Positions 1 to 16,438 of a stretch of 27,264 nt of DNA are shown one piece after another. Position numbers and translations under genes: made by a program. Source of the DNA: a virus. Lineage: Duplodnaviria > Heunggongvirae > Uroviricota > Caudoviricetes. Location of the stretch: IMG/VR virus record IMGVR_UViG_2690316318_000023, positions 1 to 27,264 of that record. One strand, given 5' to 3'. Below the pieces are notes generated by a model. The model was not told the DNA's origin. It worked only from the letters and a program-made list of their open reading frames with translations, and made no database searches. Every line of letters begins with the position of its first letter. The stretch's first letter is position 1.

Positions 1-282
1 CTACCTTTGCCTCTTGCCGCCATTTAACCGGAAGGCGTTACCGTTCGGTTGCGCTATCCCCATGCGGTGTTGCGTTTCGGTAACAGCTTTATGCAGGTCG
101 CCAAATTCCTCAACCTTCACGGGCGGGCGCTTCACGTTCTCCAGACACGTTTCACGGCGGCGCTTTATCCATTCCCGATCATCGTCCTCGGTGCATAACA
201 GCATGACTTCCATCCATCGTGCGGCAGCTCTCCGGTATAGCCCTTTTGACTCCAGCTCTTCAGCTTTCCTGTCCCTTATCAT
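1..282 (-). CDS. PerC-family-like small transcriptional activator (93 aa)
   Basis: Complete minus-strand ORF (ATG at 282, TAG at 3-1) with GAGAGG Shine-Dalgarno 5 nt upstream. Sequence (MIRDRKAEELESKGLYRRAA...) recalls PerC-type activators of enterobacterial islands; this is from memory and unverified. Confidence 0.5.
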   Translation of the reverse strand: MIRDRKAEELESKGLYRRAAARWMEVMLLCTEDDDREWIKRRRETCLENVKRPPVKVEEFGDLHKAVTETQHRMGIAQPNGNAFRLNGGKRQR

Positions 283-311
283 TTCTGCCTCTCAGATTAT
301 ATAGATAAGCA

Positions 312-357
312 AAAAGGTGTTGGTTCAGTTGGTTCAGTTGGTTCAATTTGTAAAGAG
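312..357. repeat. Left copy of a 46-bp perfect inverted repeat; contains tandem GGTTCAGTT/TTGGTTCA iterons (crr-like)
   Basis: Read directly: aaaaggtgttggttcagttggttcagttggttcaatttgtaaagag is the exact reverse complement of 7776-7821. Further GAACCAAC copies lie at about 391-420. Confidence 0.85.
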
Positions 358-769
358 CGTTGTTTTTATTGTGTTTTTTCTAAAATATTGAACCAACATC
401 AACTCATTTTGAACCAACAAAAAGTGTCCGTGAACTAACACTCTGTCAAATAGTCACTACATATATTAACGGTGAAGACTAAATCCGCCAGCAAATAGCT
501 TATATAGCACCGCTTTATGCCGCAGTTATGCTGGAACAGTAATCATTTCACAGAACCGCCTAACTACTATATGGCACCTGCTAAAAAGCACATCAGCCTA
601 GTCAGTTGATCGGTGCATGGATATCCTAACAATTCAACTATATAACGTGATCTCCCATGTCGATCTACTGTCATGCAATGATTAACAAACACATAGACAC
701 ATCTGCTTGGCGCATTGATTAATCACTGATCATCCATCAGGATATGCGAACCACCGTCACCAGGTTAGG

Positions 770-1855
770 ATGATTCTCAAAAGCCACCTGTATTCAATGC
801 CTTTGATGGGTTTCATCCATAGTTATTTTCTCGTGACTGACATGGAGATTTTGATTTCAAGGTGTGCAAAAACTATCGCAGAGTACAATGGAGCTCAAAT
901 GACTGTGGCACCAAAAGATCAAAGTTTGAAATCTGTAAGGGTGGGCTTTTACACAAGCTCTGAGAATATTCGCACTAGTAACAAGGGGTTAACCGCAGAG
1001 GCCTTTAAAAATCTGTATGATCGGTGTTCTAAAGACTTCAAGATGACCCACTATGCAGACTTTGGTGAAAGAGAACTTAAAATTCATTTTCTAGACATCT
1101 CACCCGAGGATGGCTCCTACTTCGGATTCATGTCTCGAAGAAGAAAAAGCGCAACACTGGCATATATTACAGATAAAGAGTGGGTGGAAGAGAAAATCCC
1201 TCTAGCCGGGGCAAAGACTCTTTCAGAACGTACATACTTTATTTATTATCCTCAGACAGACATTCTAGTATTGTCTTTAAATCATTTAGGTCCACGCCAT
1301 AGTGACTTAGCCTTCCTTCTTTTCAACTCCAGTGATCGCGGAGTCCCTGTTTCTTTTGAAGCCATTTGGAAAGAAGAAAGCATCAAAGAACTACTCGAAA
1401 CTGGATCCAATCTAAGAAGCTGCGAGATTTCTGTGGCCATCCCAAGAAACTTCAATGCCGCACAGTATCAACTCGATGGAATGTTCGCGAATCAGATGAT
1501 TGAGATGATCAGAGGCACCAGTTCAAGCCACCTGACTATTTCGTTACGCGGACATTCTCCATTAAAAAGAAAAGCAAAGGGATGGCTTGAGGATGACGTT
1601 AAAAAAAGCCTTAAGGAGATGCTAGAAAAGTTCCCTGGTGGTGATGGTCGTTTAACTTTTGAGAAAGCAAATGTTGTTGCTCAGGGCGATAAAAAGAAGA
1701 AAAGTCTTGTAGACGAAGTTCTTACGGTAAAGAAGATGGTGCCTATCCAAGCAGATGGGTATCCGACCGATACTGACGTTAAAAATGCTATGCTACAAGC
1801 AAAGAATGACAACCTTAGGTATCTAACCCAGTACTATTTGGTTAGTCAAACGTAA
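770..1855 (+). CDS. Hypothetical protein, large subunit of cargo module A (361 aa as drawn; true start may be ATG 899)
   Basis: Long ORF in visibly AT-rich DNA. The best Shine-Dalgarno (GGAG, 5-nt spacer) precedes the in-frame ATG at 899, so the N-terminus is uncertain. No catalytic motif recognisable by eye. The next gene follows 12 nt downstream. Confidence 0.6.
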   Translation: MILKSHLYSMPLMGFIHSYFLVTDMEILISRCAKTIAEYNGAQMTVAPKDQSLKSVRVGFYTSSENIRTSNKGLTAEAFKNLYDRCSKDFKMTHYADFGERELKIHFLDISPEDGSYFGFMSRRRKSATLAYITDKEWVEEKIPLAGAKTLSERTYFIYYPQTDILVLSLNHLGPRHSDLAFLLFNSSDRGVPVSFEAIWKEESIKELLETGSNLRSCEISVAIPRNFNAAQYQLDGMFANQMIEMIRGTSSSHLTISLRGHSPLKRKAKGWLEDDVKKSLKEMLEKFPGGDGRLTFEKANVVAQGDKKKKSLVDEVLTVKKMVPIQADGYPTDTDVKNAMLQAKNDNLRYLTQYYLVSQT

Positions 1856-1867
1856 CAGGAATACATT

Positions 1868-2305
1868 ATGAGTTCTCGGAAATTGTTTGCTGCCAAGTCA
1901 TTGTTTGCTCTAGCTATGGCTATTGCTGGTGCCCATTTTTTACACGACCTAGATCACAATGCTGTCATTTCGGCTGCTGGTGCTCTTTCAACTATTTCTG
2001 GAGTTCTCTTTGGTTTTGTTTTGGCATCAGTCACCATGCTAAGTAGCTTTGATAGTTCAAAGGGAATTGTAGGCGCTCTAAAAAGTAACGGAGTACTAAA
2101 AGGCATTATTGAGGGGCTTTTTGATACAGGAACTACGCTGATCACAGCCTGCCTATTAGCAATGATCTCGATGTTTGCCCCTGTTGTCAGCAATCTGCCT
2201 CTGGATTATTATGCCCTGCTACTCGCAGGGGCATATTTGATTATATCAATGATAACTTTTTTCTTTAACTGGAAATCTTTATCTAAAATAATAAGTTACA
2301 TATGA
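1868..2305 (+). CDS. Small four-helix integral membrane protein (145 aa), second gene of cargo module A
   Basis: ATG preceded by AGGA. Four hydrophobic helices are visible (LFALAMAIAGAHFL, ISGVLFGFVLASVTML, TLITACLLAMISMFAPVV, YYALLLAGAYLIISMITFFF). Same strand and AT-rich composition as 770-1855. Confidence 0.7.
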   Translation: MSSRKLFAAKSLFALAMAIAGAHFLHDLDHNAVISAAGALSTISGVLFGFVLASVTMLSSFDSSKGIVGALKSNGVLKGIIEGLFDTGTTLITACLLAMISMFAPVVSNLPLDYYALLLAGAYLIISMITFFFNWKSLSKIISYI

Positions 2306-3067
2306 TAAATATTTCAAAATGAGTCCCCCTGCTACGGATAGTCCTTGGCTTAAAAAATACCGTCACCGCTGAATACCCACACAGTGCCCCCACCCATTTA
2401 GTTGGCATAATGTATTCAACTGATTGAGGAATGGCTCCTCTTTTACTACCAAACGGCCATCGCTGGCGCATTCATCCGCTGGTAGTGGAACTTTTTAGCC
2501 ATCAGCGCCTCCCTAAATCAATTCCTTACATCGCTCAAATTCAACAACCATTGTTGTAATCTTGCTGCTATCAAGTAACGCCTTTGTATTACGCCGACTT
2601 TATCTTGCCAGCAACATACGCCATCCGATAATTTCGATGTTACGCGCGCATACTTGTCGCAAAATATCAGACAAAAGCCAGATTCAGAACGTCGTGATAA
2701 CCACCAGCACAACAGAGAGGTCATGTAACGCGATTTATCACATCAGATACATGTGATTGGTGTACCAGCATAAAACATCGTCATAGCGCGTCCTGTGCGC
2801 ATATACGCCGATAATCAACACATCACCACCACTCTGTCTCGTGTAGAGAACAGTTTCATGGTATCCCCCGCCATCGTGTGCGTACTGGTCGGACGCAGTT
2901 GCAAAAAATTTTGCAACTGATACCCCTCGCGCGCGTACTGGTCACGAAATTGGTGTTTTGCTGTGGCAGTGATATCAGAAAAATCTTCCTGTTTCACATA
3001 AAGCGGATATGCGCGTACTGTAACGGCCCCATCAACGGGGATCGGATTTGAAATCCCGACCCAAGCT

Positions 3068-3487
3068 ATGTACCAAATGCCATGTCTTGGATATATGATG
3101 ATTGCCATTCTAAACAAAGCTAAAGGGAGGGTTGGTGTGAATGCTCAGGCTGTCATCATGGTTTTCCTTGGTCTGATTGTCGCAAAACTATATCCAGACT
3201 GGTGGAAAGGGGCATTAGCAACTGTCGCCATCTATTTGCTTTTATCCGTCGTTAAGCGATCGTTCGTTAAGACCGTAAATCAAGCAAAACGTTTCTCATT
3301 TAAGAATTTAATAAACTATATTACTGGGCTTATTTTTTGCCTTTCAATTTTGATCGCCTCAGCTTTTTTGCCCGTATCAATAGCTAATTTTTTTGGCGCA
3401 CCATATGAGGTAGGTTATCTATTCTCTGTTTTTTGCCTTGTTCTTTCCCTTCTTTACCTATGGATGAGAGCAAAGAACAAAAATTAG
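3068..3487 (+). CDS. Small multi-pass membrane protein (139 aa as drawn; probable start GTG 3137, about 116 aa)
   Basis: GGGAGGG Shine-Dalgarno sits 6 nt before the in-frame GTG at 3137. Four hydrophobic segments. Convergent with the 701-aa gene. Confidence 0.55.
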   Translation: MYQMPCLGYMMIAILNKAKGRVGVNAQAVIMVFLGLIVAKLYPDWWKGALATVAIYLLLSVVKRSFVKTVNQAKRFSFKNLINYITGLIFCLSILIASAFLPVSIANFFGAPYEVGYLFSVFCLVLSLLYLWMRAKNKN

Positions 3488-3500
3488 CCATCCATGGCTA
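3485..3500. terminator. Short hairpin (TAGCCA-TCCA-TGGCTA) between convergent genes; T-run follows on the minus strand
   Basis: Palindrome read directly. Flanked by an A-run on plus (ATTTTTGTTC on the minus strand), consistent with termination of the minus-strand three-gene operon. The stem is short, so confidence is low. Confidence 0.3.
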
Positions 3501-3505
3501 ACCAG

Positions 3506-5611
3506 TTATTGAGCTTCTTTTTGTGATGCCTGTGCGACTCTGGTGAGCGATTGTGTGACCGTACTGATCGCTCTGTCATATGCTGTGCTACCTTTTGGCG
3601 TATTTGCCAGACGTAACAAGGCATTTCGTATAACAGGGCTTTCGTATGCCTTCGCTGCTCCGCCTACGGCACCAGCAGCAGGAACAACAAACGCAGCCGT
3701 TTTTAGCATCCCCGCTAATACTGCTGCGTTTATGATGCCACCACCAACTAACAATCCATAAAGCTGCTGACCATTTAAGTTTTGAACGTTCGCTTTTGCC
3801 GCGTGTCTTGTATCGTTGAGGTATTTAATAACGCCGTCCAGTTCCTTTCCATGTACGCCTTTAAAGAAAGTTGCTGATTGCTTCCTGTTCCGGTGTAACG
3901 CATTAATAAACTTCTCAACACTGATATTTCCAGACGGATCAGTCGCCTTATCTACAGCATTCTGAACTATGGCTGCTCGTGCGTTTTGCCTACCATTGTC
4001 ATCCAGAAGCCTGTAAAGCTGAGAACGTTCTGATGGGCTTTGGCTAAAAACGAGTTTTGTTACATCCTCAGGCGTGGCCTTGCCGCTGGCTATTGCCTTT
4101 TGAACGCGCGTTCTTCCCATCATGTCATTGAATTTAGACCATGAGCGATCAACCCTTGCCATATTAATGGCTTCGTCTGCTCCAAGATTTTTGGCTACGG
4201 CTTTTTTCATATCCGCCGTATATGCCTTGTAGATAATATCGCTGGCTTTCTGGAGCGTATCTTTATCAACAGTGTCAGATGACGCCATAAATCGCTTTCG
4301 AAGATCGGTTCTGTTTTCCCTCGCCAGACGCAGGTCATTTGGTCCGCTGGTGATATCGTCTTTAAATTGCTGCAAGACTTTTACCGCGGCTCTATCCTGA
4401 GATTTGCCCGGGCGGCTTAACACGGCAATCTGATTGTCGATAGCTTTTACCGTGTTTGAGAGATCGACAGGGGTATCCCCCATAGCGTCAATTATGCGGT
4501 TATATCGCTTTCCTGCTGCCTCAATGAATTTTTGTTGCCCTTTAGTCGCAGATTCATAAAGCTGTTTATCAGAAATGCCACCCAGACCATCGCTAAATGT
4601 TCTGACTAAATTTTCTCGTGCTTGTTGTTGATTCAGCCGATTCTTACCGGTTCCAAAAAAAGGAACTCTTTCGCCTAATGTCTGAGCCTGACTCTGCATA
4701 AAGGTTTTATCTTTCAGCATGTCACTGGTCATTAACGGCAGATTTCTTTCCGATGCAAAGTCGACAGCAGCCTTTGCTTCAGGCGACATATCACCACGAA
4801 CAGCCCTCGAAACCGCACTCGCTGTATTTTCCAGCCCCTTACCAATACCACCAATGCCAGCAGAAATTACCGTTTGTAACGGATCAATATCTTCTCCACC
4901 AGCAAGGCTGGTGGCTCCCTGTAGTGCTAAATCTGTAGCTGCTGATTTTCCTATGGCACCAAGCACCGTTCCAGCCCTGCCCGCTGGTGTAAACGCCAAC
5001 GCATTAGCAAGAAACGAGGTCAGGTCTTGCGGTGATAAACCCGGCTTGTTCAGGGCATAATCACCTGATGGCAGAGAAACGATAGTATTCCCCTTCTCAT
5101 CCTGCCTTAATGTCGCCCCCATTCCCTGAAGAATCTTTTCCTGAGACGCGTCAGAGCCGAAAAGTTGAGACCATCCAGCCTTTAGGGCATCCATGCTTAG
5201 TGAGTTCAATTCTGGGGCAGAGGCGACATTTTGCAGTCTCTCCATCTCTGGAGTCATTCGGCTTTCGCCTGTTATAGCATCGCGCATCGCAGCCCCAAGA
5301 CTGGCTCCCTGTTCTGCTGAACGCTCAAGCCCCTCTCTTTGCTGAGTAGCTAACTTTGCATACCCTGACGCAAGAGAATTATCAGATGATGTATGTTGAA
5401 TATTTTGAGTTGCTGATTGGGATCGGTCTATTTCATTCGTTGATGGTAGTGGATAGGCAGCATAAAAAGCCTGCTTAGCCTGCTCTACACTTTCTCCGGC
5501 TTGCGGGGCCACGACTTCATTGAAGTATTGCTCCTGAGCCTGCGCTTTTTGTTCTGGTGCTAACGCCTGATACTGTGGAGAGGCGATAACATCTTTCCAT
5601 GCTTTAGCCAT
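3506..5611 (-). CDS. Hypothetical protein (701 aa), distal gene of the three-gene cargo operon; Ala/Gln/Ser-rich with a C-terminal hydrophobic Gly/Ala-rich segment
   Basis: ATG at 5611-5609 overlaps the upstream stop (TAATG) and is preceded by GGGGTGA. No Walker A or nuclease motif seen by eye. C-terminal LLVGGGIINAAVLAGMLKTAAFVVPAAGAVGGAA looks membrane-associating. Confidence 0.8.
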   Translation of the reverse strand: MAKAWKDVIASPQYQALAPEQKAQAQEQYFNEVVAPQAGESVEQAKQAFYAAYPLPSTNEIDRSQSATQNIQHTSSDNSLASGYAKLATQQREGLERSAEQGASLGAAMRDAITGESRMTPEMERLQNVASAPELNSLSMDALKAGWSQLFGSDASQEKILQGMGATLRQDEKGNTIVSLPSGDYALNKPGLSPQDLTSFLANALAFTPAGRAGTVLGAIGKSAATDLALQGATSLAGGEDIDPLQTVISAGIGGIGKGLENTASAVSRAVRGDMSPEAKAAVDFASERNLPLMTSDMLKDKTFMQSQAQTLGERVPFFGTGKNRLNQQQARENLVRTFSDGLGGISDKQLYESATKGQQKFIEAAGKRYNRIIDAMGDTPVDLSNTVKAIDNQIAVLSRPGKSQDRAAVKVLQQFKDDITSGPNDLRLARENRTDLRKRFMASSDTVDKDTLQKASDIIYKAYTADMKKAVAKNLGADEAINMARVDRSWSKFNDMMGRTRVQKAIASGKATPEDVTKLVFSQSPSERSQLYRLLDDNGRQNARAAIVQNAVDKATDPSGNISVEKFINALHRNRKQSATFFKGVHGKELDGVIKYLNDTRHAAKANVQNLNGQQLYGLLVGGGIINAAVLAGMLKTAAFVVPAAGAVGGAAKAYESPVIRNALLRLANTPKGSTAYDRAISTVTQSLTRVAQASQKEAQ

Positions 5612-7077
5612 TAATCACCCCATAGTGAAGAAAAGTTACTGCTGGCTGCTGGCTGTGATACCTGCTCAGATTGCGGCAATGTCTGCGACGAAGAAGCAGT
5701 TCCTCTGTCAACTGCTGAAATAACCCGCAAAGCATCATAAGTTCGACCAGAAGCAGCTTTCAGCGAATTGAACTGGTTTTCCATCTTCCGGCGCTTGGTA
5801 TCAATGGTTTTTGTGGAATCACCAGGCTGAGGGAAATACATTTGATAATATTTGGACATTTCAGCTGGTAGGATAGATGCCCCTGTTTCCTGACGGAGTA
5901 TTGCCATTATTGCGTCATTAGCATTAACAACGTATTGCTGCTCTGCTGGGCTGAGCGTTAAGTTAGCCAGCGTCCCATTACCCAAAGCATTATTAATGAT
6001 CGCCACTCGCTGTGGGCTAAGCTGGTCTTTCAGTGTATCTATTGAATCAAGAGCATCCCTAACCCTGTATGCAAATCCAGCAGCTTTTTTAGCCCCTTCT
6101 GGCGACTTTTCCATGATCTTTTGGGCTGTTGGCAAAGCTATTGGACGAAACCCATCTCCAGATATTGGCTGGTTTAGTTTTCCCTGCTCTTCACTTCCGT
6201 CTGTGTAGTATTTTGTGACAGTGCCATCATCGTTTTCTCTAACACTCATTAATTTTTTGGCGTTTGTATTAATTCCAGCCGCTGCCGCAAATGCCGCCGC
6301 CCCCTCTGGATCCGCCTTTAACATTTGCGCGTACTGATTGTAATTCTGCATTGCTGCTGTTGGTGCATATGCTGACGTTAACGCATTTGCTCGGCTAATA
6401 TCCTGCCCTCTCGCCTGAAGTGCTTCGCCAGCCTGATTGCTGCGGATTGTCTCTGCCAACTTGCCACGCTCAATATCCCGACCTTCCATTTGATCTTTGA
6501 TATCGAAATACTTCTCATGACCGAGAGAAAACAGCGCCAGATTACCTGCGAAATGCTGGAAGCCCTGCGGGTCATTAACCTGCATTTCAGCAATAGTTTC
6601 TGGAGGGATACCTAAACGACGCATCTCCTGCTCATTATCCATCATGAACCTGCCAAATGCGCCCTGACCAAGCGATGAGGCTACCTGTGCTTTGAGCGCC
6701 AGATTGCCATAATCATCCCTTTGAGCATCATCGACATAACTCATCCCTTTACGGACTTCCTCAAACTCTTCTGGGAATGCTGTAATAAGATTACGCATCT
6801 GCTCCCTGTCACCGGACGCATAAGCATCTGCATAACCTTTCTGGAATGCCGCTTTACGCTCCTGCTGTTGCTGCTGCTTATAAATATCAGCAACGCCAGC
6901 CAGACCACGAAGACCTGTCAGAGCAACGTTATTTGCACCTGAGCGAGCCAGTTCATTGTTTTCGCGGATCAGACCAAGCGTTGCGTTAATGTCGCTTGCC
7001 TTTGGCGCATTCTCGTTTTGCGCACCAATGCCAGCCAGAAAACCACCAGAATTAATACCCTGTTGCCACGTAGCCAT
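5611..7077 (-). CDS. Hypothetical protein (about 488 aa from ATG 7077; ORF open to GTG 7089), middle gene of the three-gene cargo operon
   Basis: Long ORF, translationally coupled to the 701-aa gene. Gln/Ala-rich (QQQQQERKAAFQ), no recognisable enzymatic motif. Confidence 0.8.
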   Translation of the reverse strand: MATWQQGINSGGFLAGIGAQNENAPKASDINATLGLIRENNELARSGANNVALTGLRGLAGVADIYKQQQQQERKAAFQKGYADAYASGDREQMRNLITAFPEEFEEVRKGMSYVDDAQRDDYGNLALKAQVASSLGQGAFGRFMMDNEQEMRRLGIPPETIAEMQVNDPQGFQHFAGNLALFSLGHEKYFDIKDQMEGRDIERGKLAETIRSNQAGEALQARGQDISRANALTSAYAPTAAMQNYNQYAQMLKADPEGAAAFAAAAGINTNAKKLMSVRENDDGTVTKYYTDGSEEQGKLNQPISGDGFRPIALPTAQKIMEKSPEGAKKAAGFAYRVRDALDSIDTLKDQLSPQRVAIINNALGNGTLANLTLSPAEQQYVVNANDAIMAILRQETGASILPAEMSKYYQMYFPQPGDSTKTIDTKRRKMENQFNSLKAASGRTYDALRVISAVDRGTASSSQTLPQSEQVSQPAASSNFSSLWGD

Positions 7078-7081
7078 TGAT

Positions 7082-7255
7082 TTACCCACGTCCAGTTAAA
7101 GTGTAAGCCAGCGCCTTATCCATTAATCCCCGAGCAATTTCATGGATCGTTGGCGCAACTCCTACCTCTGATTTTTTACGCTGCTCCTCCTGAATTTTCT
7201 TTATCGCTTCCATTTGCTTCTCACTTATCAATACTGGCTTTACTGAAATAGCCAT
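7082..7255 (-). CDS. Small hypothetical protein (57 aa), first gene of the three-gene cargo operon; possible small DNA-binding or regulatory protein
   Basis: ATG at 7255 preceded by AAGGGGG (4-5 nt spacer); its stop lies 2 nt before the next gene's ATG. Translation: MAISVKPVLISEKQMEAIKKIQEEQRKKSEVGVAPTIHEIARGLMDKALAYTLTGRG. Confidence 0.5.
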   Translation of the reverse strand: MAISVKPVLISEKQMEAIKKIQEEQRKKSEVGVAPTIHEIARGLMDKALAYTLTGRG

Positions 7256-7689: not shown

Positions 7690-7821
7690 TTCAGTCACAT
7701 TGTGTTGGTTCAAAATACCGTGTTGTTGGTTCGGTGTTGGTTCAATAAAAAGAATAAAATCCTTACAAAACAATACTCTTTACAAATTGAACCAACTGAA
7801 CCAACTGAACCAACACCTTTT
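7690..7821. repeat. Iteron array immediately downstream of the primase gene (ori-like); includes the right copy of the 46-bp perfect inverted repeat (7776-7821)
   Basis: Multiple TTGGTTCA/GAACCAAC copies. 7776-7821 (ctctttacaaattgaaccaactgaaccaactgaaccaacacctttt) is the exact reverse complement of 312-357. Confidence 0.8.
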
Positions 7822-7839: not shown

Positions 7840-10596
7840 TCATTCTTCGGATGAGTTATAATCTCCTGGCTGGTAATTGAGTACATAAACGTTTATTTGT
7901 CGTCCCTGAATACGTGGTGATTTTCTTTGGTATCCACGACCGCTGTTTGGTGGGGTTAGCATCCCGGCTTTTTTCAACACTTCAGCAAACTGTTTTGCGT
8001 TGAAACCACATGCGATCTCCTTTTCAAATGTGGCCGGGAATGTGTAGAAAATCATTGGGCTTTCGTCATGTTCTCCACGCTGACGGTATCCGGCTAAATC
8101 TTTGATGGGCAAATCTGCCGGGCTGTATGGAAATGGTGCAAAACGGCTAAGCCCATAGGCATTAAGAAATGCCTCCGTTTGTTCAATAATCTGCTGATGC
8201 TCTTTGTTACCTGTGCCGAACTCGCGCAACCATGCGTTATAGCTGTGCTGTATCGCATCACGGCATGTCTGAGCATCCCAGCCTGTTACAACCTCGCCTA
8301 ACAGCAATGCGGCCTCCAGAATGGCAAATCGCGCGGCTACACGGTGAACCTGCTCACCATAATCGGATGGGATCAGGCTTCTCCATCTGCTTTCGCAGTC
8401 ACGAACAGTTTTAATAGCCTGTTGCTGGTGGTCTGCCAGCCATTTAATCCACTCACGCCCGGCTGCGCCGTGGTGATGCTGGTAAGCGTCTTTCAGTGCG
8501 TCTGCGTGCTGTTTTCCGTTCTGGTAATCGTGAAAGCGTACTGCTTTACTCAACGGAATATTCAGCAGTCGCACCAGTTGCCCGGCTTTGGTTTTTCGCC
8601 CGGAAGTAGCGATAAATGTTTCTAAATCCATTTCTCCGGTGCTGATTGCCACTGTACGCCAGCGTTTTAGATCCCGGTTTCCACCATCTTTAGCGCCTTG
8701 CAGTTTCCCTACACCGTTAAATAACGCATAGGCAGACTGTGAAACACTGACAGGATCAGCGCCCTGACCAACTTCATCAAGCGGCATTAATCCGTCATTG
8801 TGGGCGGCGGCTTCATTTGCCAGCCCCAGCGCGGTTCCGTACCACGTCAGCCGCAGTAAATCAGGGTTGCCGTATAAGCTGCTCGCCACGTTTGCCGTGG
8901 TGGTCTTACCTGCGCTCGACTGCTCATAGAAATGAATACCGAACCCGTCAGCACCCACCAGCCCAATCAATGGCGCTGCCAGTGCTGCGCCGATCCCGGT
9001 CATCATTGAATAGTTACCAAAGGCCAGACGCGCCACGTTATCACGCCAGCTTTTCGCGCTCCCTGAGACGGTATATCCGGCTGCGGCTGAGCTTCTCCCG
9101 CTGAACAGCACAGGATTTTCAGGTGTTCCGATGATTTCCCCATCAGACATGATGTACGCTCCGCATTGCCAGCCAGTGGCATGAGCAACACGCCACAATT
9201 CACGAGAGCCACTGCGTTGTAGCCAGTCTGCCAGTATTGCTCTGAGGCTGCTTTTGGTCGTGACATTTACCCCACCAGCTTTAAGTGTGCGCCATCCTTC
9301 ACGTTCACCAATATCAGCCAGTGGAATGGCAGCGGTTGTCGGCGTTTCAGAACCAAACGACAGCCAGCGAAGAATGAGATACTGGTCTTTATCGTCTCTG
9401 CCAGTACCGATAACGCTTAAAGGAGAACATAACCAGCTTTCGTTATTGATGATTTCTCCACTCTGGCTGTCAGCTCTCGGAGATACCCAATAAATACCAT
9501 CCTCGCGGCTTTCTATTCTTGGTTTCAGTGGGTCGGTATCCATAACCTTAAAATCGCTTCCCTCAATGGTCTGTGGCTCCTGTTTCACGCCATTACCCTG
9601 TGGTTGGTACATTGACTTATTGAACGCTTCTGTGGCGCATTTAATGCCGTGTTTTTGGTGGTAATCATTCCAGTCTGCTTTGTGATCTGTCGGGGGTAAT
9701 GCCACCCATCCAGAAACAGATAAAGCTGCTTTTTCTGCTGCTATTCTCCCCGTGTTTTGTCTTCCTTCGCTGTGGTCGTTATCCGCAGCAATGATGATTT
9801 GTGCTGAAGGAAATTTATCCCGCAGTACCTGGGCGACATATAACAGGTTCCCGGCATCAATCGCCGCCACTGTCAGCGCTTCTGAACGAATTAAATGGGC
9901 AGATAATGCCGTTGCCAGCCCTTCTGCGATTAAGATGCTCTGTGTTGTTTCTGGTGCGTTTATGGCGTGATATGCCCCTCGCTTTGCTGAACCTGTCAGG
10001 AGTCTTTTTTCACCATGTGAGGTAATAGTCTGTGCTGCTGTGACTGCGCCGGATTTATCCACCAGCGCCAGCAACAGAGATCCATCGGGCAACACGGGGA
10101 ATGTAAAATCACCTACCCCTTTCGCAACCAGATAATCAGATTTGCCGTTTACAGCCTTTCTGCGCATGTCATCAAACTGACGGGAAAACGTATCCCGTCT
10201 TTGTTGTTCGTCCTTCTCTGCCCTTTTCAGGCGCTCCTGTTCGCGTCGCTGGCGCTCGGTTTCCAGTTGTTCCCGTTTCTGGCTGGTGGCTTCTGGTGTT
10301 TCCGTTGTCCGGTAATCAATACCCAGAACATCAGCGGCAAGAAGCGCCGCCTCTGTTGTGTCGCAGTTATTTACGCGTTTAATTAAATCCAGCCCATCAC
10401 CAGCGCCGCACTGATTACAGATGAAGCTACCGCGCCCGTTGTCATCGAACCGGAATCGATCTTTGCCCCCACATGCAGGGCAGGGAGCATGACGGCGCGG
10501 AGAGTCAGGGACATTTATGTTCAGGCAGCCCAGCACATGAGGCCAGTTGTTTTCAGACGCACTGATAACCTGACGGATAAGATCAATGTTTCGCAT
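7840..10596 (-). CDS. P4 alpha-like DNA primase/helicase (918 aa): N-terminal zinc-ribbon, TOPRIM, C-terminal P-loop NTPase
   Basis: CPACGG...CNQCG zinc-binding motif near the N-terminus; TOPRIM-like IIIAADNDHSEG; P-loop-like SSAGKTT. ATG preceded by GGGGG Shine-Dalgarno. Confidence 0.9.
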   Translation of the reverse strand: MRNIDLIRQVISASENNWPHVLGCLNINVPDSPRRHAPCPACGGKDRFRFDDNGRGSFICNQCGAGDGLDLIKRVNNCDTTEAALLAADVLGIDYRTTETPEATSQKREQLETERQRREQERLKRAEKDEQQRRDTFSRQFDDMRRKAVNGKSDYLVAKGVGDFTFPVLPDGSLLLALVDKSGAVTAAQTITSHGEKRLLTGSAKRGAYHAINAPETTQSILIAEGLATALSAHLIRSEALTVAAIDAGNLLYVAQVLRDKFPSAQIIIAADNDHSEGRQNTGRIAAEKAALSVSGWVALPPTDHKADWNDYHQKHGIKCATEAFNKSMYQPQGNGVKQEPQTIEGSDFKVMDTDPLKPRIESREDGIYWVSPRADSQSGEIINNESWLCSPLSVIGTGRDDKDQYLILRWLSFGSETPTTAAIPLADIGEREGWRTLKAGGVNVTTKSSLRAILADWLQRSGSRELWRVAHATGWQCGAYIMSDGEIIGTPENPVLFSGRSSAAAGYTVSGSAKSWRDNVARLAFGNYSMMTGIGAALAAPLIGLVGADGFGIHFYEQSSAGKTTTANVASSLYGNPDLLRLTWYGTALGLANEAAAHNDGLMPLDEVGQGADPVSVSQSAYALFNGVGKLQGAKDGGNRDLKRWRTVAISTGEMDLETFIATSGRKTKAGQLVRLLNIPLSKAVRFHDYQNGKQHADALKDAYQHHHGAAGREWIKWLADHQQQAIKTVRDCESRWRSLIPSDYGEQVHRVAARFAILEAALLLGEVVTGWDAQTCRDAIQHSYNAWLREFGTGNKEHQQIIEQTEAFLNAYGLSRFAPFPYSPADLPIKDLAGYRQRGEHDESPMIFYTFPATFEKEIACGFNAKQFAEVLKKAGMLTPPNSGRGYQRKSPRIQGRQINVYVLNYQPGDYNSSEE

Positions 10597-11685: not shown

Positions 11686-11876
11686 TTTTCACCCCCAAGA
11701 ATTACCAGCTCTGCACGGGCATCGTTAACCAAAGATGAGCACGCTTTAATCGCATCCACGACATCAGCAGCGTCCATTTCTTCAGCCGAAAGACTGACAG
11801 CAACCAGGACAGCCGCTACTTGCTCAATTAATTGAAGTGCTGACGTAAGGCGAGGGGTATTAATTGAGTTATTCAT
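11682..11876 (-). CDS. Small hypothetical protein (64 aa from ATG 11876)
   Basis: GGGGG Shine-Dalgarno 6 nt before the ATG at 11876. The track ORF extends to 11933 but has no ribosome-binding site there. Confidence 0.45.
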   Translation of the reverse strand: MNNSINTPRLTSALQLIEQVAAVLVAVSLSAEEMDAADVVDAIKACSSLVNDARAELVILGGEK

Positions 11877-12936
11877 TGGTTGCCCCCGTTTTTCCTGGCA
11901 TTTGTCCACCTTCCAGCAGGAAATGAACGTCACGAACGGCGAGATCCAATATCGCGAGTAACGCCTTCAGCCTTTCGTCTCGTGAGGGAGAGTTGCTCAC
12001 CAGAATGTCGTTAATCACTTCTGTCAGTGTGATGATCTGGCTTGTGCGTTCGAGGGGATCCATATGCACATCGTAGGTTTTAATCATGTGCCACCTCCAT
12101 GCGGATACGACCAGCAAAAAAGCAGACGTGATCGCGCACCAGAGAACGGCGAGCATCGCGTTCAGACTCGGCAGCAATATGATGAATTTTGGCGGTAATT
12201 GTCGGGCAATCGCGGCGAACTGCGGCGATAATCCAGATAAATTGCGGTTTTTGGGTAGGGGTAGTAGCCAGCATGTGGCAGCCTCCTTCAGATAGCAGGT
12301 TACGCTACCACCGGAAACGCCAATTTCGCTGGTGGTAGCCCAGACAGGGTTGGCGTAACCGGCTCTGAAGGATACCGGCGCTTCCGAAGAAGCCCCCGCC
12401 TGAGCCACCATTGATTGACAAAGGCGCTGGATTATACACCAACGCCCAAAAAATGGGTGAGTCAGACCTACGACATAAAAAAAGACGCTCGGCGCGTCAT
12501 ATGTCGCCTTCAGAATTTTCAGGACGCCAATCCCGGCACCCGTTTTATGAGGTGCCTTATAACCATAAACCGTGTTGCCGCATAACGGCAAGCTCTTTTT
12601 TATGGACTCCGAAAACTCAGTATTGGAAGCACCAGATGCACAATACATCGCGCTCATTTCGTTAACGTCGCGCGTATGGACGAAGGTTTTTGTGGAGTCA
12701 CTACGCGAGCAGAGAAAGCCATCTACGACCAGAAATTCTCTGGCGCAGCCGCTGACCTTCTCAACGCTAACACCATCGACCGTAATTTCTGACATAGTTA
12801 AGGCATCCGCTCCTACCACCAGAAAATGATAAACTTTGCTTGTATCTGCTGTATTAATGCCAGACTTTGCTGTCATATTGCTGGATTTTGGTGACATACC
12901 AGCCAGTGAAAATATCTTCTTCTGGACGGTTAGCAT
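11869..12936 (-). CDS. ORF of uncertain structure (355 codons open); N-terminal part looks like a real protein, C-terminal part overlaps alternative small genes
   Basis: ATG at 12936 has a GGAGG Shine-Dalgarno. The frame is open to 11869, but strong GGAGG-ATG sites also occur at 12274 (other frame, 64 aa) and 12087 (same frame, 72 aa), so the real gene boundaries are unclear. Confidence 0.35.
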
Positions 12937-13112
12937 TTGTTAACCTCCGCGAACTCCTTCATGAAGCGCGCCAGCGGTTGTACGCATGGCGATTGATACC
13001 CGTCGCGATAAAACGTCACTCGGTTGTGAGACACGCTTTCGACAGTAACGAGTGCTCCGTGGGCATCTTTGTAGCGTTTTTGAGGTTGTGGTGTTCCTGT
13101 TGGCTTAGACAT
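12930..13112 (-). CDS. Small hypothetical protein (about 60 aa from ATG 13112)
   Basis: GGAGG Shine-Dalgarno 6 nt upstream of ATG 13112, which overlaps the end of the upstream gene. Confidence 0.45.
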   Translation of the reverse strand: MSKPTGTPQPQKRYKDAHGALVTVESVSHNRVTFYRDGYQSPCVQPLARFMKEFAEVNKC

Positions 13113-13938
13113 TGACCGCCTCCAGACGCTTGGCGAGCCAGCGTTGCGACAGGCGGGTGAGTTCTCCTTTGCGCTGCTCATATTCCATGCCCATATCAAT
13201 TAACGTGATATTGGTGCTTTCGAGATATGAGAGGTGCTCAAGCTGTTCTGCGTTCATATGGTCGCGAGGTTCGCCAGAATAGCCATTTATCCGCGCCCAC
13301 TGCTTAGCAGTTAGCCCACCAAGAACGATACGAGAAATCATATTGCTCTCGTTTGTGTAGTGGTGTTGCTGCGTCGTTTTCCCCTGCTCGGCACGGGCCA
13401 TATTCAGCGCATCGCACATTGGCTTAAAGTTGTTTGCGGCACTGATACGGGCTTTTAGCTGGCGACGATAGCGGGCGGCGATTTCAGGCACGCTACGCTG
13501 TAATTCTTCCTCGCACTGGATGAAATAACGGCGGATAGCGCGACCCTGATCATTGCGTTCGATCATTGCCAGTTCTTTCGCCATTCCGACACTTAACAGA
13601 TAGTCTTTGCCGGGTCTGCCAGACTGCTTAATCTTGCTGTAAGCCGCGCCATTCGGGCTTTTCCCCAAATTTGGGGAAATTGTTTTATGGACTGAGTAAT
13701 CGTGCCCAATGGTGAAGTCATATTCAGAGATGCGATCAGTGATCCATGTAGAGAAGTCTTTTCCCACGCCCAACGCTTTGTGTAACGCTTTTGCGCTAAC
13801 AATATTGGTTTCACGCCCACCGATATGACCAGGAATAACCGGGACAATTGCGGCAAATTCATTACCGTTAATTGTGCTCAGAGAGGCGTTCAGATGAGGG
13901 GCGGCCTCAGAAATTAATCTGCTTTTTTCGATGTTCAT
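13105..13938 (-). CDS. Phage antirepressor-like protein (277 aa)
   Basis: GGAGA Shine-Dalgarno. The N-terminal region (DYLLSVGMAKELAMIERNDQGRAIRRYFIQCEEEL) resembles the antirepressor/Rha-type N-terminal domain of phage regulatory proteins; recalled, unverified. Confidence 0.7.
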   Translation of the reverse strand: MNIEKSRLISEAAPHLNASLSTINGNEFAAIVPVIPGHIGGRETNIVSAKALHKALGVGKDFSTWITDRISEYDFTIGHDYSVHKTISPNLGKSPNGAAYSKIKQSGRPGKDYLLSVGMAKELAMIERNDQGRAIRRYFIQCEEELQRSVPEIAARYRRQLKARISAANNFKPMCDALNMARAEQGKTTQQHHYTNESNMISRIVLGGLTAKQWARINGYSGEPRDHMNAEQLEHLSYLESTNITLIDMGMEYEQRKGELTRLSQRWLAKRLEAVNV

Positions 13939-15012: not shown

Positions 15013-16227
15013 TCATGCGTGTTTTTCAAACACCATATGCACCACATTTCCGCCATGCTCGAGAGAATCCATATAGTCGGCATACCATTGAAGCATCTCC
15101 CGCCTTCCATCCAGATATTGCGCATGGTTGTATGTGCCACGAATTGAGTTCTTATCAACGTGAGCGAGCTGCGTTTCTATCCACGCGGTGTTATAGCCCT
15201 GCTCATGCAAAATCGTACTCATAGTGTGCCGGAACCCATGACCAGTTACACGTCCAGCGTAGCCAATGCGCTTAAACACTTGGTTTATGCTGGCCTCACT
15301 CATTGTTTTCCTTGGATCATTGCGCCCGGGAAACATAAGAGGGTAATTGCCTGTTATTTCTCTAATCTTCCCAATAAGCGAAAGAGCCTGCTCAGACAAT
15401 GGCACAATATGAGGCCGCCGCATTTTCATACGTGAAGCGGGTATCTCCCAGAGAGCCTTGTTGAAATCAATTTCATCCCATAATGCGCCACGTAGTTCGC
15501 CAGTCCGCAAGCCTGTGATAATCAGTAGACGAGCCGCCATAACAACCAATGCGCTTCCTGAGTAACTGGACAATGCCTTGAAAAAATCAGGTAATTCTTT
15601 GGCTGTAAGGAAAGGGTAATGATTAGATTCATGGCCTTGCATCGCGCTAGTAAGGTCTGGTGCAGGGTTATACTCTGCGCGACCAGTGACTATTGCATAG
15701 CGGAAAACTTCCCCGCACCGCTGCCTCACTTTTTTGGCTTTTTCTGTAGCACCGCGCCCCTCGATGCGCCGCAGCACATTCAGAAGTTCAAGTGGTTTGA
15801 TTTCGGCGATTGGTTTTTTGCCAATGTAAGGGAACACATCTTTGTTGAAGGCTTCGAGGATGTCTGAAGCATAACCAGCAGACCATTTTTTTAATTTGCT
15901 GCTGTGCCACTCAAGGGCAATATCTTTGAAGGTGTTGTTTAACTGCGTTTCCCGGGCAATCTTTTCCTCTCGTTTCGCTTCCATCGGATCGATACCACCA
16001 GCGATACCTCTTTTCGCATCTTCACGTTTTGCCCGAGCATCGGCTAGAGTAACCTCAGGATACACACCTAGTGCCAATAGCTTCTCTTTACCAGCTACAC
16101 GATATTTAAGTCGCCAGTATTTACCTCCATTAGGTTTTACCAAGAGATACAAACCGCCACCATCGGCCAGCTTGTAAGCCTTCTCTTTTGGCTTGGCTGT
16201 GTCTATTTGACGGGCATTGAGTTTCAC
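15013..16227 (-). CDS. int: P4-type tyrosine site-specific integrase (404 aa)
   Basis: N-terminus MKLNARQIDTAKPKEKAYKLADGGGLYLLVKPNGGKYWRLKYR and C-terminal HGFRHT...LAH...Y catalytic region. GTG start with GGAGG upstream. Adjacent to the tRNA fragment. Confidence 0.95.
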   Translation of the reverse strand: MKLNARQIDTAKPKEKAYKLADGGGLYLLVKPNGGKYWRLKYRVAGKEKLLALGVYPEVTLADARAKREDAKRGIAGGIDPMEAKREEKIARETQLNNTFKDIALEWHSSKLKKWSAGYASDILEAFNKDVFPYIGKKPIAEIKPLELLNVLRRIEGRGATEKAKKVRQRCGEVFRYAIVTGRAEYNPAPDLTSAMQGHESNHYPFLTAKELPDFFKALSSYSGSALVVMAARLLIITGLRTGELRGALWDEIDFNKALWEIPASRMKMRRPHIVPLSEQALSLIGKIREITGNYPLMFPGRNDPRKTMSEASINQVFKRIGYAGRVTGHGFRHTMSTILHEQGYNTAWIETQLAHVDKNSIRGTYNHAQYLDGRREMLQWYADYMDSLEHGGNVVHMVFEKHA

Positions 16228-16392: not shown

Positions 16393-16438
16393 TGGTGCCG
16401 ATAATAGGAGTCGAACCTACGACCTTCGCATTACGAAT
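16393..16438 (-). pseudogene. tRNA-Thr 3' fragment (46 nt: anticodon loop through CCA end), att-core repeat beside the integrase; not an intact tRNA
   Basis: The minus strand reads ...TTCGTAATGCGAAGGTCGTAGGTTCGACTCCTATTATCGGCACCA (T-loop GGTTCGACTCC, acceptor stem, CCA), matching my recollection of E. coli thrW. The upstream sequence cannot form the 5' acceptor/D arm. Confidence 0.6.

Follow-up and report, generated by a model that had tools for sequence, protein, structure and literature searches.

A divergent DUF6731 gene pair in an exchangeable cargo slot of an E. coli island as a probable remote homologue of the lambda rexA-rexB operon

The two-gene cassette at positions 770-2305 of the window, by which we mean the whole 27,264-nt stretch of DNA analysed here (IMG/VR record IMGVR_UViG_2690316318_000023), is best read as remotely homologous to rexA-rexB, the operon for phage exclusion in lambda, and as exchangeable cargo of an integrase/primase island. 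We give this reading a probability of roughly 0.6. The homology of the pair to Rex is fairly secure, while its function in defence by phage exclusion is something that we infer by analogy with characterized systems. Architecture, gene order, protein sizes, fold and carriage on a mobile element all match systems of the RexAB type. An earlier note on this DNA had gone as far as a parallel in architecture with lambda RexA/RexB; with a fold match to RexA and a profile link to RexB through intermediate family members, homology is now proposed.

The cassette contains two co-directional open reading frames on the plus strand, 770-1855 and 1868-2305, which comprise 361 and 145 codons and are separated by 12 nt, in agreement with the layout described previously. 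The length of 361 aa given earlier for the large protein corresponds to the longest open reading frame, but the real product is most likely a 318-aa protein that starts at the ATG at 899 (899-1855, +). This start is favoured by a GGAG motif located 5-6 nt upstream of the ATG, by RefSeq, which annotates a 318-aa protein in E. coli genomes that are 99% identical, by the PHROG 7651 profile, which spans only residues 46-360 of the 361-aa reading, and by the full-length homologues, which are about 309-323 aa long and begin at the residue encoded at 899. No good Shine-Dalgarno sequence was found before position 770, and the 43-codon 5' extension of the longest frame (770-898, +) is probably untranslated. 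The second gene (1868-2305, +) is preceded by an AGGA Shine-Dalgarno motif. We refer to the products as a RexA-like cytoplasmic protein, a putative sensor or DNA binder, and a RexB-like membrane protein, a putative effector. The dN/dS values for the two genes in comparison with a 91%-identical relative were 0.054 and 0.065, and values of about 0.06 indicate strong purifying selection on both.

The G+C content of the cassette is 40.8%, compared with a median of 47.5% for windows of the same size in the island, a gap of about 7 percentage points. This places the cassette in the lowest 1.2% of same-size windows in the island and in the lowest 10.5% in the whole window, where the segment 19001-20500 is far more AT-rich. 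The cassette is thus poorer in G+C than the island, as the earlier note had it, but to call it much more AT-rich was an overstatement. Downstream of the genes, about 290 nt of non-coding DNA (2306-2597) form the 3' end of the variable module. A consensus scan yielded two weak terminator-like hairpins followed by T-runs on the plus strand (2426-2440 and 2475-2489), a number not above chance, and the scan for promoters and terminators gave nothing that exceeded the shuffled expectation.

Neither of the two window proteins matched a model in Pfam (E <= 0.1), PADLOC (E <= 1) or NCBIfam; as a positive control, lambda RexA and RexB matched those Pfam/PADLOC models at 1e-97 and 8.6e-61. In PHROGs, the matches were to unnamed families only, PHROG 7651 for the large and PHROG 8552 for the small protein. 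The 318-aa query did not match Pfam DUF6731 (PF20505) above the gathering threshold, whereas relatives at 43-49% identity scored 31-45 bits against this model, for which the cutoff is 27. A profile search of 1.84 billion representatives yielded 136 clusters at 50% identity, 118 of them full-length, and 104 of the 118 full-length relatives matched DUF6731 at E <= 0.01. Since its relatives match DUF6731 and the query does not, we place the query in a divergent subfamily of the same superfamily. The earlier statement that the large protein has no recognisable motif is therefore correct for direct HMM scans but does not extend to its relatives, which are members of DUF6731. Named relatives come from Shewanella, Pseudoalteromonas, Vibrio, Chromobacterium and a Magnetococcus MAG, and the family ranges over Gamma- and Betaproteobacteria and beyond. 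Kyte-Doolittle analysis revealed no TM-like segment in the large product, as expected for the soluble protein described before.

An AlphaFold2 model of the 318-aa protein was built from a 32-sequence alignment (pLDDT 79.8, pTM 0.73). A Foldseek search of the PDB with this model, the check that the earlier note had proposed, returned lambda RexA as the best match (8twq_B, E 2.1e-6, prob 1.0), followed by RdgC. The fold match to E. coli RdgC (PDB 2OWL) was much weaker than that to RexA. RdgC is a stand-alone chromosomal recombination modulator that is not known to have a membrane partner. The whole-chain TM-score of the model to RexA was 0.32, with about 14% identity in the structural alignment, and a differing hinge angle between the domains could explain this low score. 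In the model, a sheet flanked by helices at the N-terminus is followed by a central four-strand/helix unit and then by a strand and a long helix at the C-terminus, and we predict that the protein takes a RexA/RdgC-type fold, in which a split globular domain carries an inserted beta-sheet domain. RexA has been described as a globular domain split by the insertion of a dimerisation domain, which the order of elements in the model fits, and the list of structural neighbours of RexA in Adams et al. 2024 is the list found for the 318-aa model (PMC11077077).

At the level of sequence, the tie of the large protein to RexA is weak. HHalign of a broad DUF6731 alignment against a 5-sequence RexA family gave an E-value of 5.9e-4 over 151 columns from the N-termini, compared with 0.42 for the reversed control. 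The close-family alignment yielded no significant match to lambda RexA alone or to the 5-sequence family (E 0.16-0.19), and phmmer searches of the PDB sequences with both proteins and the DUF6731 profile recovered neither RexA nor RexB.

The small protein resembles RexB in size and topology (145 aa here, 144 aa and four TM helices in RexB). Its hydrophobic segments on the Kyte-Doolittle scale cover residues of about 6-25, 32-61, 87-113 and 110-135, and the AlphaFold2 model, which is of low confidence (pLDDT 63), contains four long helices at 3-24, 30-61, 76-103 and 112-144. Both results bear out its previous description as a four-helix membrane protein. When the small-protein family was pooled and aligned to a family of 27 RexB sequences using HHalign, the probability was 91% and the E-value 1.1e-6, against 0.36 for the reversed control. 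The aligned region covers TM2, the central loop and TM3, which is the most conserved part of the family. The signal comes from distant members. The enteric subfamily to which the window protein belongs aligned to the partners of canonical DUF6731 genes with a probability of 98% (E 2.6e-13; reversed control 2e-3), and the canonical partners aligned to the RexB family with a probability of 86.5% (E 4.6e-6; reversed control 0.39). Two of the canonical partners were also matched by the PADLOC RexB HMM (L008, 4.6e-5; L010, 3.1e-6). The direct comparison of the enteric subfamily to RexB was not significant (E 0.076; reversed control 0.19), the window protein alone reached a probability of 0.4% against the RexB profile, and BLASTP of the small protein against RexB returned nothing. 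The homology to RexB is therefore transitive, by way of the canonical DUF6731 partners, and in these profile comparisons it is moderately supported.

A fold search of BFVD with the small-protein model, at its pLDDT of 63, gave no match at E <= 1e-3. Second in rank was a Sbash protein of 165 aa, a weak match (prob 0.93, E 0.12) that may be gp31. In Sbash gp31, the central cytoplasmic loop is essential for defence, as seen for the substitutions R70A and D73A (PMC6426596), and the block of the small-protein family that aligns to RexB corresponds to the same region.

We also examined the gene neighbourhoods of the relatives, for which loci on viral contigs (n = 80) were gathered with the close-family alignment. 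A TM-rich partner gene, of roughly 145-153 codons or, in one locus, 113, was located directly downstream on the same strand in all 80 of these loci. The partner was equally present in all 8 others, which makes 88 of 88. Adjacency, the sensor gene in first position and strict co-inheritance, as in RexAB-type systems, are thus found throughout. The pair is flanked by the gene for the Q antiterminator and by holin/endolysin genes in 66 of the 80 viral-contig loci, which are in lambdoid prophages. Its orientation relative to Q is convergent there, and the adjoining holin and endolysin ORFs are on the other strand. The upstream neighbours in the lambdoid loci encode holins (PF05106, PF04971) and an endolysin of GH108. 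The slot between Q and the lysis genes is a common site of morons in lambdoid phages. The pair is found both in this slot and in satellite-like islands, and it moves between these two types of element. A different placement was seen in a prophage of Chromobacterium sp. CV08 (L011, 5897-6573), where the pair is part of the early region, with RecT/PDDEXK recombination genes on one side and cI/Cro-like HTH genes on the other, which is nearer to the location of rex in lambda; the partner ORF of about 144 aa had been missed by the gene caller.

In the window, the pair occupies a variable cargo module (420-2597) that differs between islands otherwise 94-98% identical. In blastn comparisons of positions 1-3600 to three such islands (L017, L018 and L019), the homology ends at 419/441 and resumes at 2464/2598. 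Of 5,426 complete E. coli genomes, about 700 contain the flanks, whereas 42 contain the cassette, always at >=99% identity. Elsewhere, the same slot of about 2.2 kb is filled by a hypothetical gene together with one for an Abi family protein, by a set of genes with an ImmA/IrrE metallopeptidase, or by an HTH gene alone. Because the same flanks enclose alternative contents, including an Abi-family gene and ImmA/IrrE, the designation of this site as a cargo hotspot holds up. Some E. coli copies match a query of positions 500-3600 in two pieces with a coverage of only 89%, which indicates that these copies differ by an insertion or deletion outside the two genes.

The conserved left flank (1-419, -) contains a perC-family gene at 1-282 (Pfam PerC, E 3.7e-30) and GTTGGTTCA repeats. 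The conserved right flank (2598-3487, +) includes a TM-rich gene, annotated in RefSeq at 3098-3487 with a product of 129 aa (+; the longest ORF encodes 139 aa). This protein has four TM-like segments and is encoded in about 700 E. coli genomes, and its gene is convergent with an ejection-protein gene. It matched no family, and HHalign showed no similarity to the RexB-like family, with E-values of 0.13-0.27. An inverted repeat at 526-545 and 2754-2773 was considered as a bracket of the cassette; its right arm falls within the conserved flank and about 0.2 such pairs are expected by chance on a rough estimate, for which reasons we treat it as a chance occurrence.

The left 16.4 kb of the window represent an E. 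coli chromosomal island. Its genes include those for a tyrosine integrase (15013-16227), a zinc-ribbon/TOPRIM/DUF927 primase (7840-10596), an Ash-family protein (ORF 11869-12936) and an AntA-family antirepressor (13105-13938), as well as two P22-type ejection-protein genes (3506-7089, -; Pfam Inj_translocase, E 1e-83; one product a 701-aa 'injection protein'). The neighbours of the pair in the island are perC on one side and the ejection-protein genes on the other. No capsid or tail genes were found in the island. With an integrase and a primase but no capsid genes, the island is satellite-like and may be a satellite, as it was termed earlier. Ejection proteins encoded by the island itself may be supplied to a P22/Sf6-like helper.

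Several other features of the island and the adjoining DNA were observed. The 9-mer GTTGGTTCA has 20 matches with at most one mismatch, compared with 7.1 expected, and none of 100 shuffles reached 20. It forms mirror-image clusters at 319-439 and 7704-7814, each with 3 direct and 3 inverted copies and about 7.4 kb apart, one of which abuts the left edge of the cargo slot while the other is located just 3' of the primase gene. These clusters may be iterons of a replication region of the P4 ori/crr type. On the minus strand at 12328-12555, inside the Ash-family ORF and near the AntA antirepressor gene, matches to Rfam C4 antisense RNA (79.9 bits) and the isrK Hfq-binding RNA (67.8 bits) exceeded the gathering score, a combination with AntA that resembles antirepressor control of the P1/P7 immI type. 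The similarity to a thrW-integrated island of AMSCJX02 stops at 16438, within a partial 3' copy of tRNA-Thr (16393-16438), and ARAGORN detected no intact tRNA in the window. To the right of 16438 are a GNAT gene, an HTH-cupin gene, a MASE4-GGDEF cyclase in DNA of 27-35% G+C and lambdoid tail genes, along with an IS009 RNA match at 20911-21109. This DNA was not contiguous with the island in any complete E. coli genome searched. The arrangement suggests a tandem or composite insertion.

Among known systems, lambda RexA/RexB (PF15969/PF15968; PDB 8TWQ) has the same gene order and a gap of 15 nt, compared with 12 nt here. It differs in that RexA is 279 aa rather than 318 aa, that the window pair has no direct membership in the Rex HMMs, and that lambda rexAB is part of the cI-rexA-rexB immunity operon, whereas the window pair is located in a cargo hotspot and not beside cI. 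In the RexABpp system of the Pseudomonas putida prophage P1 (PP_5643/PP_5644), RexBpp is longer, with substitutions reported up to residue 181, and HHpred revealed no similarity of it to RexB (PMC12894663), unlike the partner family of the window, which does link to RexB. Sbash gp30/gp31 and gp44/gp43 of the Gordonia phage CarolAnn are prophage-expressed pairs of a Rex-like sensor and a four-TM effector; their hosts are Actinobacteria, and gp30 is 372 aa in size with a DUF4747 motif common to RexA (PMC6426596). The PADLOC candidate PDC-M67A was matched by 7 of the 118 DUF6731 relatives (best E 1.6e-8) and PDC-M67B by one small partner (L007, E 9.7e-4), so that a portion of the family had been picked out by computation before. 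PDC-M67 is a bioinformatic candidate only, and the window's own proteins matched neither of its models.

If the pair works in the manner of lambda RexAB, Sbash gp30/31 and P. putida RexABpp (PMC11077077, PMC6426596, PMC12894663), the 318-aa protein would act as a sensor that forms dimers, binds DNA and reacts to an infecting phage. It would activate the 145-aa membrane protein, putatively an oligomer, which would then dissipate the membrane potential and ATP. The infected cell would be arrested and phage growth aborted, which would protect the island and the host population.

Instead of excluding phages, the pair might serve the life cycle of the mobile element itself, with the RexA-like DNA binder biasing a switch between lysogeny and induction and the RexB-like protein modulating proteolysis in the host or the activity of a toxin-antitoxin system. 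We consider this unlikely, but secondary roles of both kinds have been reported for lambda RexA and RexB, and Adams 2024 found that RexA acts on the lambda bistable switch independently of RexB and that its DNA binding does not track exclusion (PMC11077077). The Chromobacterium pair, which has cI/Cro-like HTH genes as neighbours in the early region of its prophage, would also fit such a role. However, more than 90% of the islands that are similar in other respects lack the cassette and carry Abi-family or ImmA/IrrE genes instead, and a cassette that can be exchanged in this manner is not a core regulatory part. The large majority of the viral-contig loci (66/80), in the Q-lysis slot and on the opposite strand, are likewise far from the immunity region, and the strict pairing in 88 of 88 loci argues that both proteins act together. 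The same pairing bears on whether the small protein could mediate superinfection exclusion at the membrane in the manner of Sie or Imm, so that entry of DNA is blocked without killing or arresting the cell. A small, predicted inner-membrane protein that is carried by prophages and islands, here beside P22-type ejection-protein genes, would suit an entry block. Yet blockers of the Sie/Imm kind usually need no cytoplasmic partner with a RexA/RdgC fold, whereas this pair always has a cytoplasmic partner, and the TM2-loop-TM3 block resembles RexB; we judge an entry block to be improbable.

Most relatives adjoin holin and endolysin genes, as would be expected if the pair were an accessory to lysis timing that combines a holin- or antiholin-like membrane protein with a regulator. 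We find this very improbable given that in the 66 loci the pair converges with Q while the holin/endolysin ORFs occupy the other strand, that it also occurs in the present island, which has no lysis cassette, and that no holin family was matched in Pfam or PHROGs. Kiwa offers a similar parts list. It combines a four-helix membrane protein, KwaA, with a soluble, DNA-binding protein of about 315 aa, KwaB. There was no match to KwaA, KwaB or DUF4868 in PADLOC or Pfam for the query and the 118 relatives, and the top structural match was RexA, which makes a Kiwa-like system hardly credible. Remote homology to rexA-rexB with a probable role in phage exclusion is thus the reading that we prefer.

The RexAB kind of system is already known, and a 2026 paper puts the described RexAB-like systems at just five. 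The literature searched contained no mention of DUF6731, PDC-M67 or the RefSeq protein accessions and nothing that ties DUF6731 to Rex. The link between DUF6731 and Rex is new to this literature, and it concerns a remote sequence in a new genomic niche. We tentatively suggest, at slightly less than even odds, that DUF6731 together with its unannotated membrane partner of about 145 aa constitutes a large unrecognised branch of the Rex superfamily, comprising at least 136 clusters at 50% identity. This branch would have moved out of the immunity operon to travel as independent cargo, which shuttles between the Q-lysis moron slot in lambdoid prophages and the hotspots of satellite-like islands.

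Rex was the first abortive-infection system to be discovered. If the proposed link is true, hundreds of natural variants would become available for comparative and mutational work, and the conserved TM2-loop-TM3 block would be the likely interface between sensor and effector. The link would also account for an unannotated moron that recurs in lambdoid prophages between Q and the lysis genes, add a type of defence cargo to the E. coli integrase/primase islands, and suggest new names for PADLOC PDC-M67 and Pfam DUF6731. If the branch is active, sensing of the Rex type, in which a DNA binder with an RdgC fold gates a four-TM effector, would be a widespread strategy of defence rather than a handful of cases.
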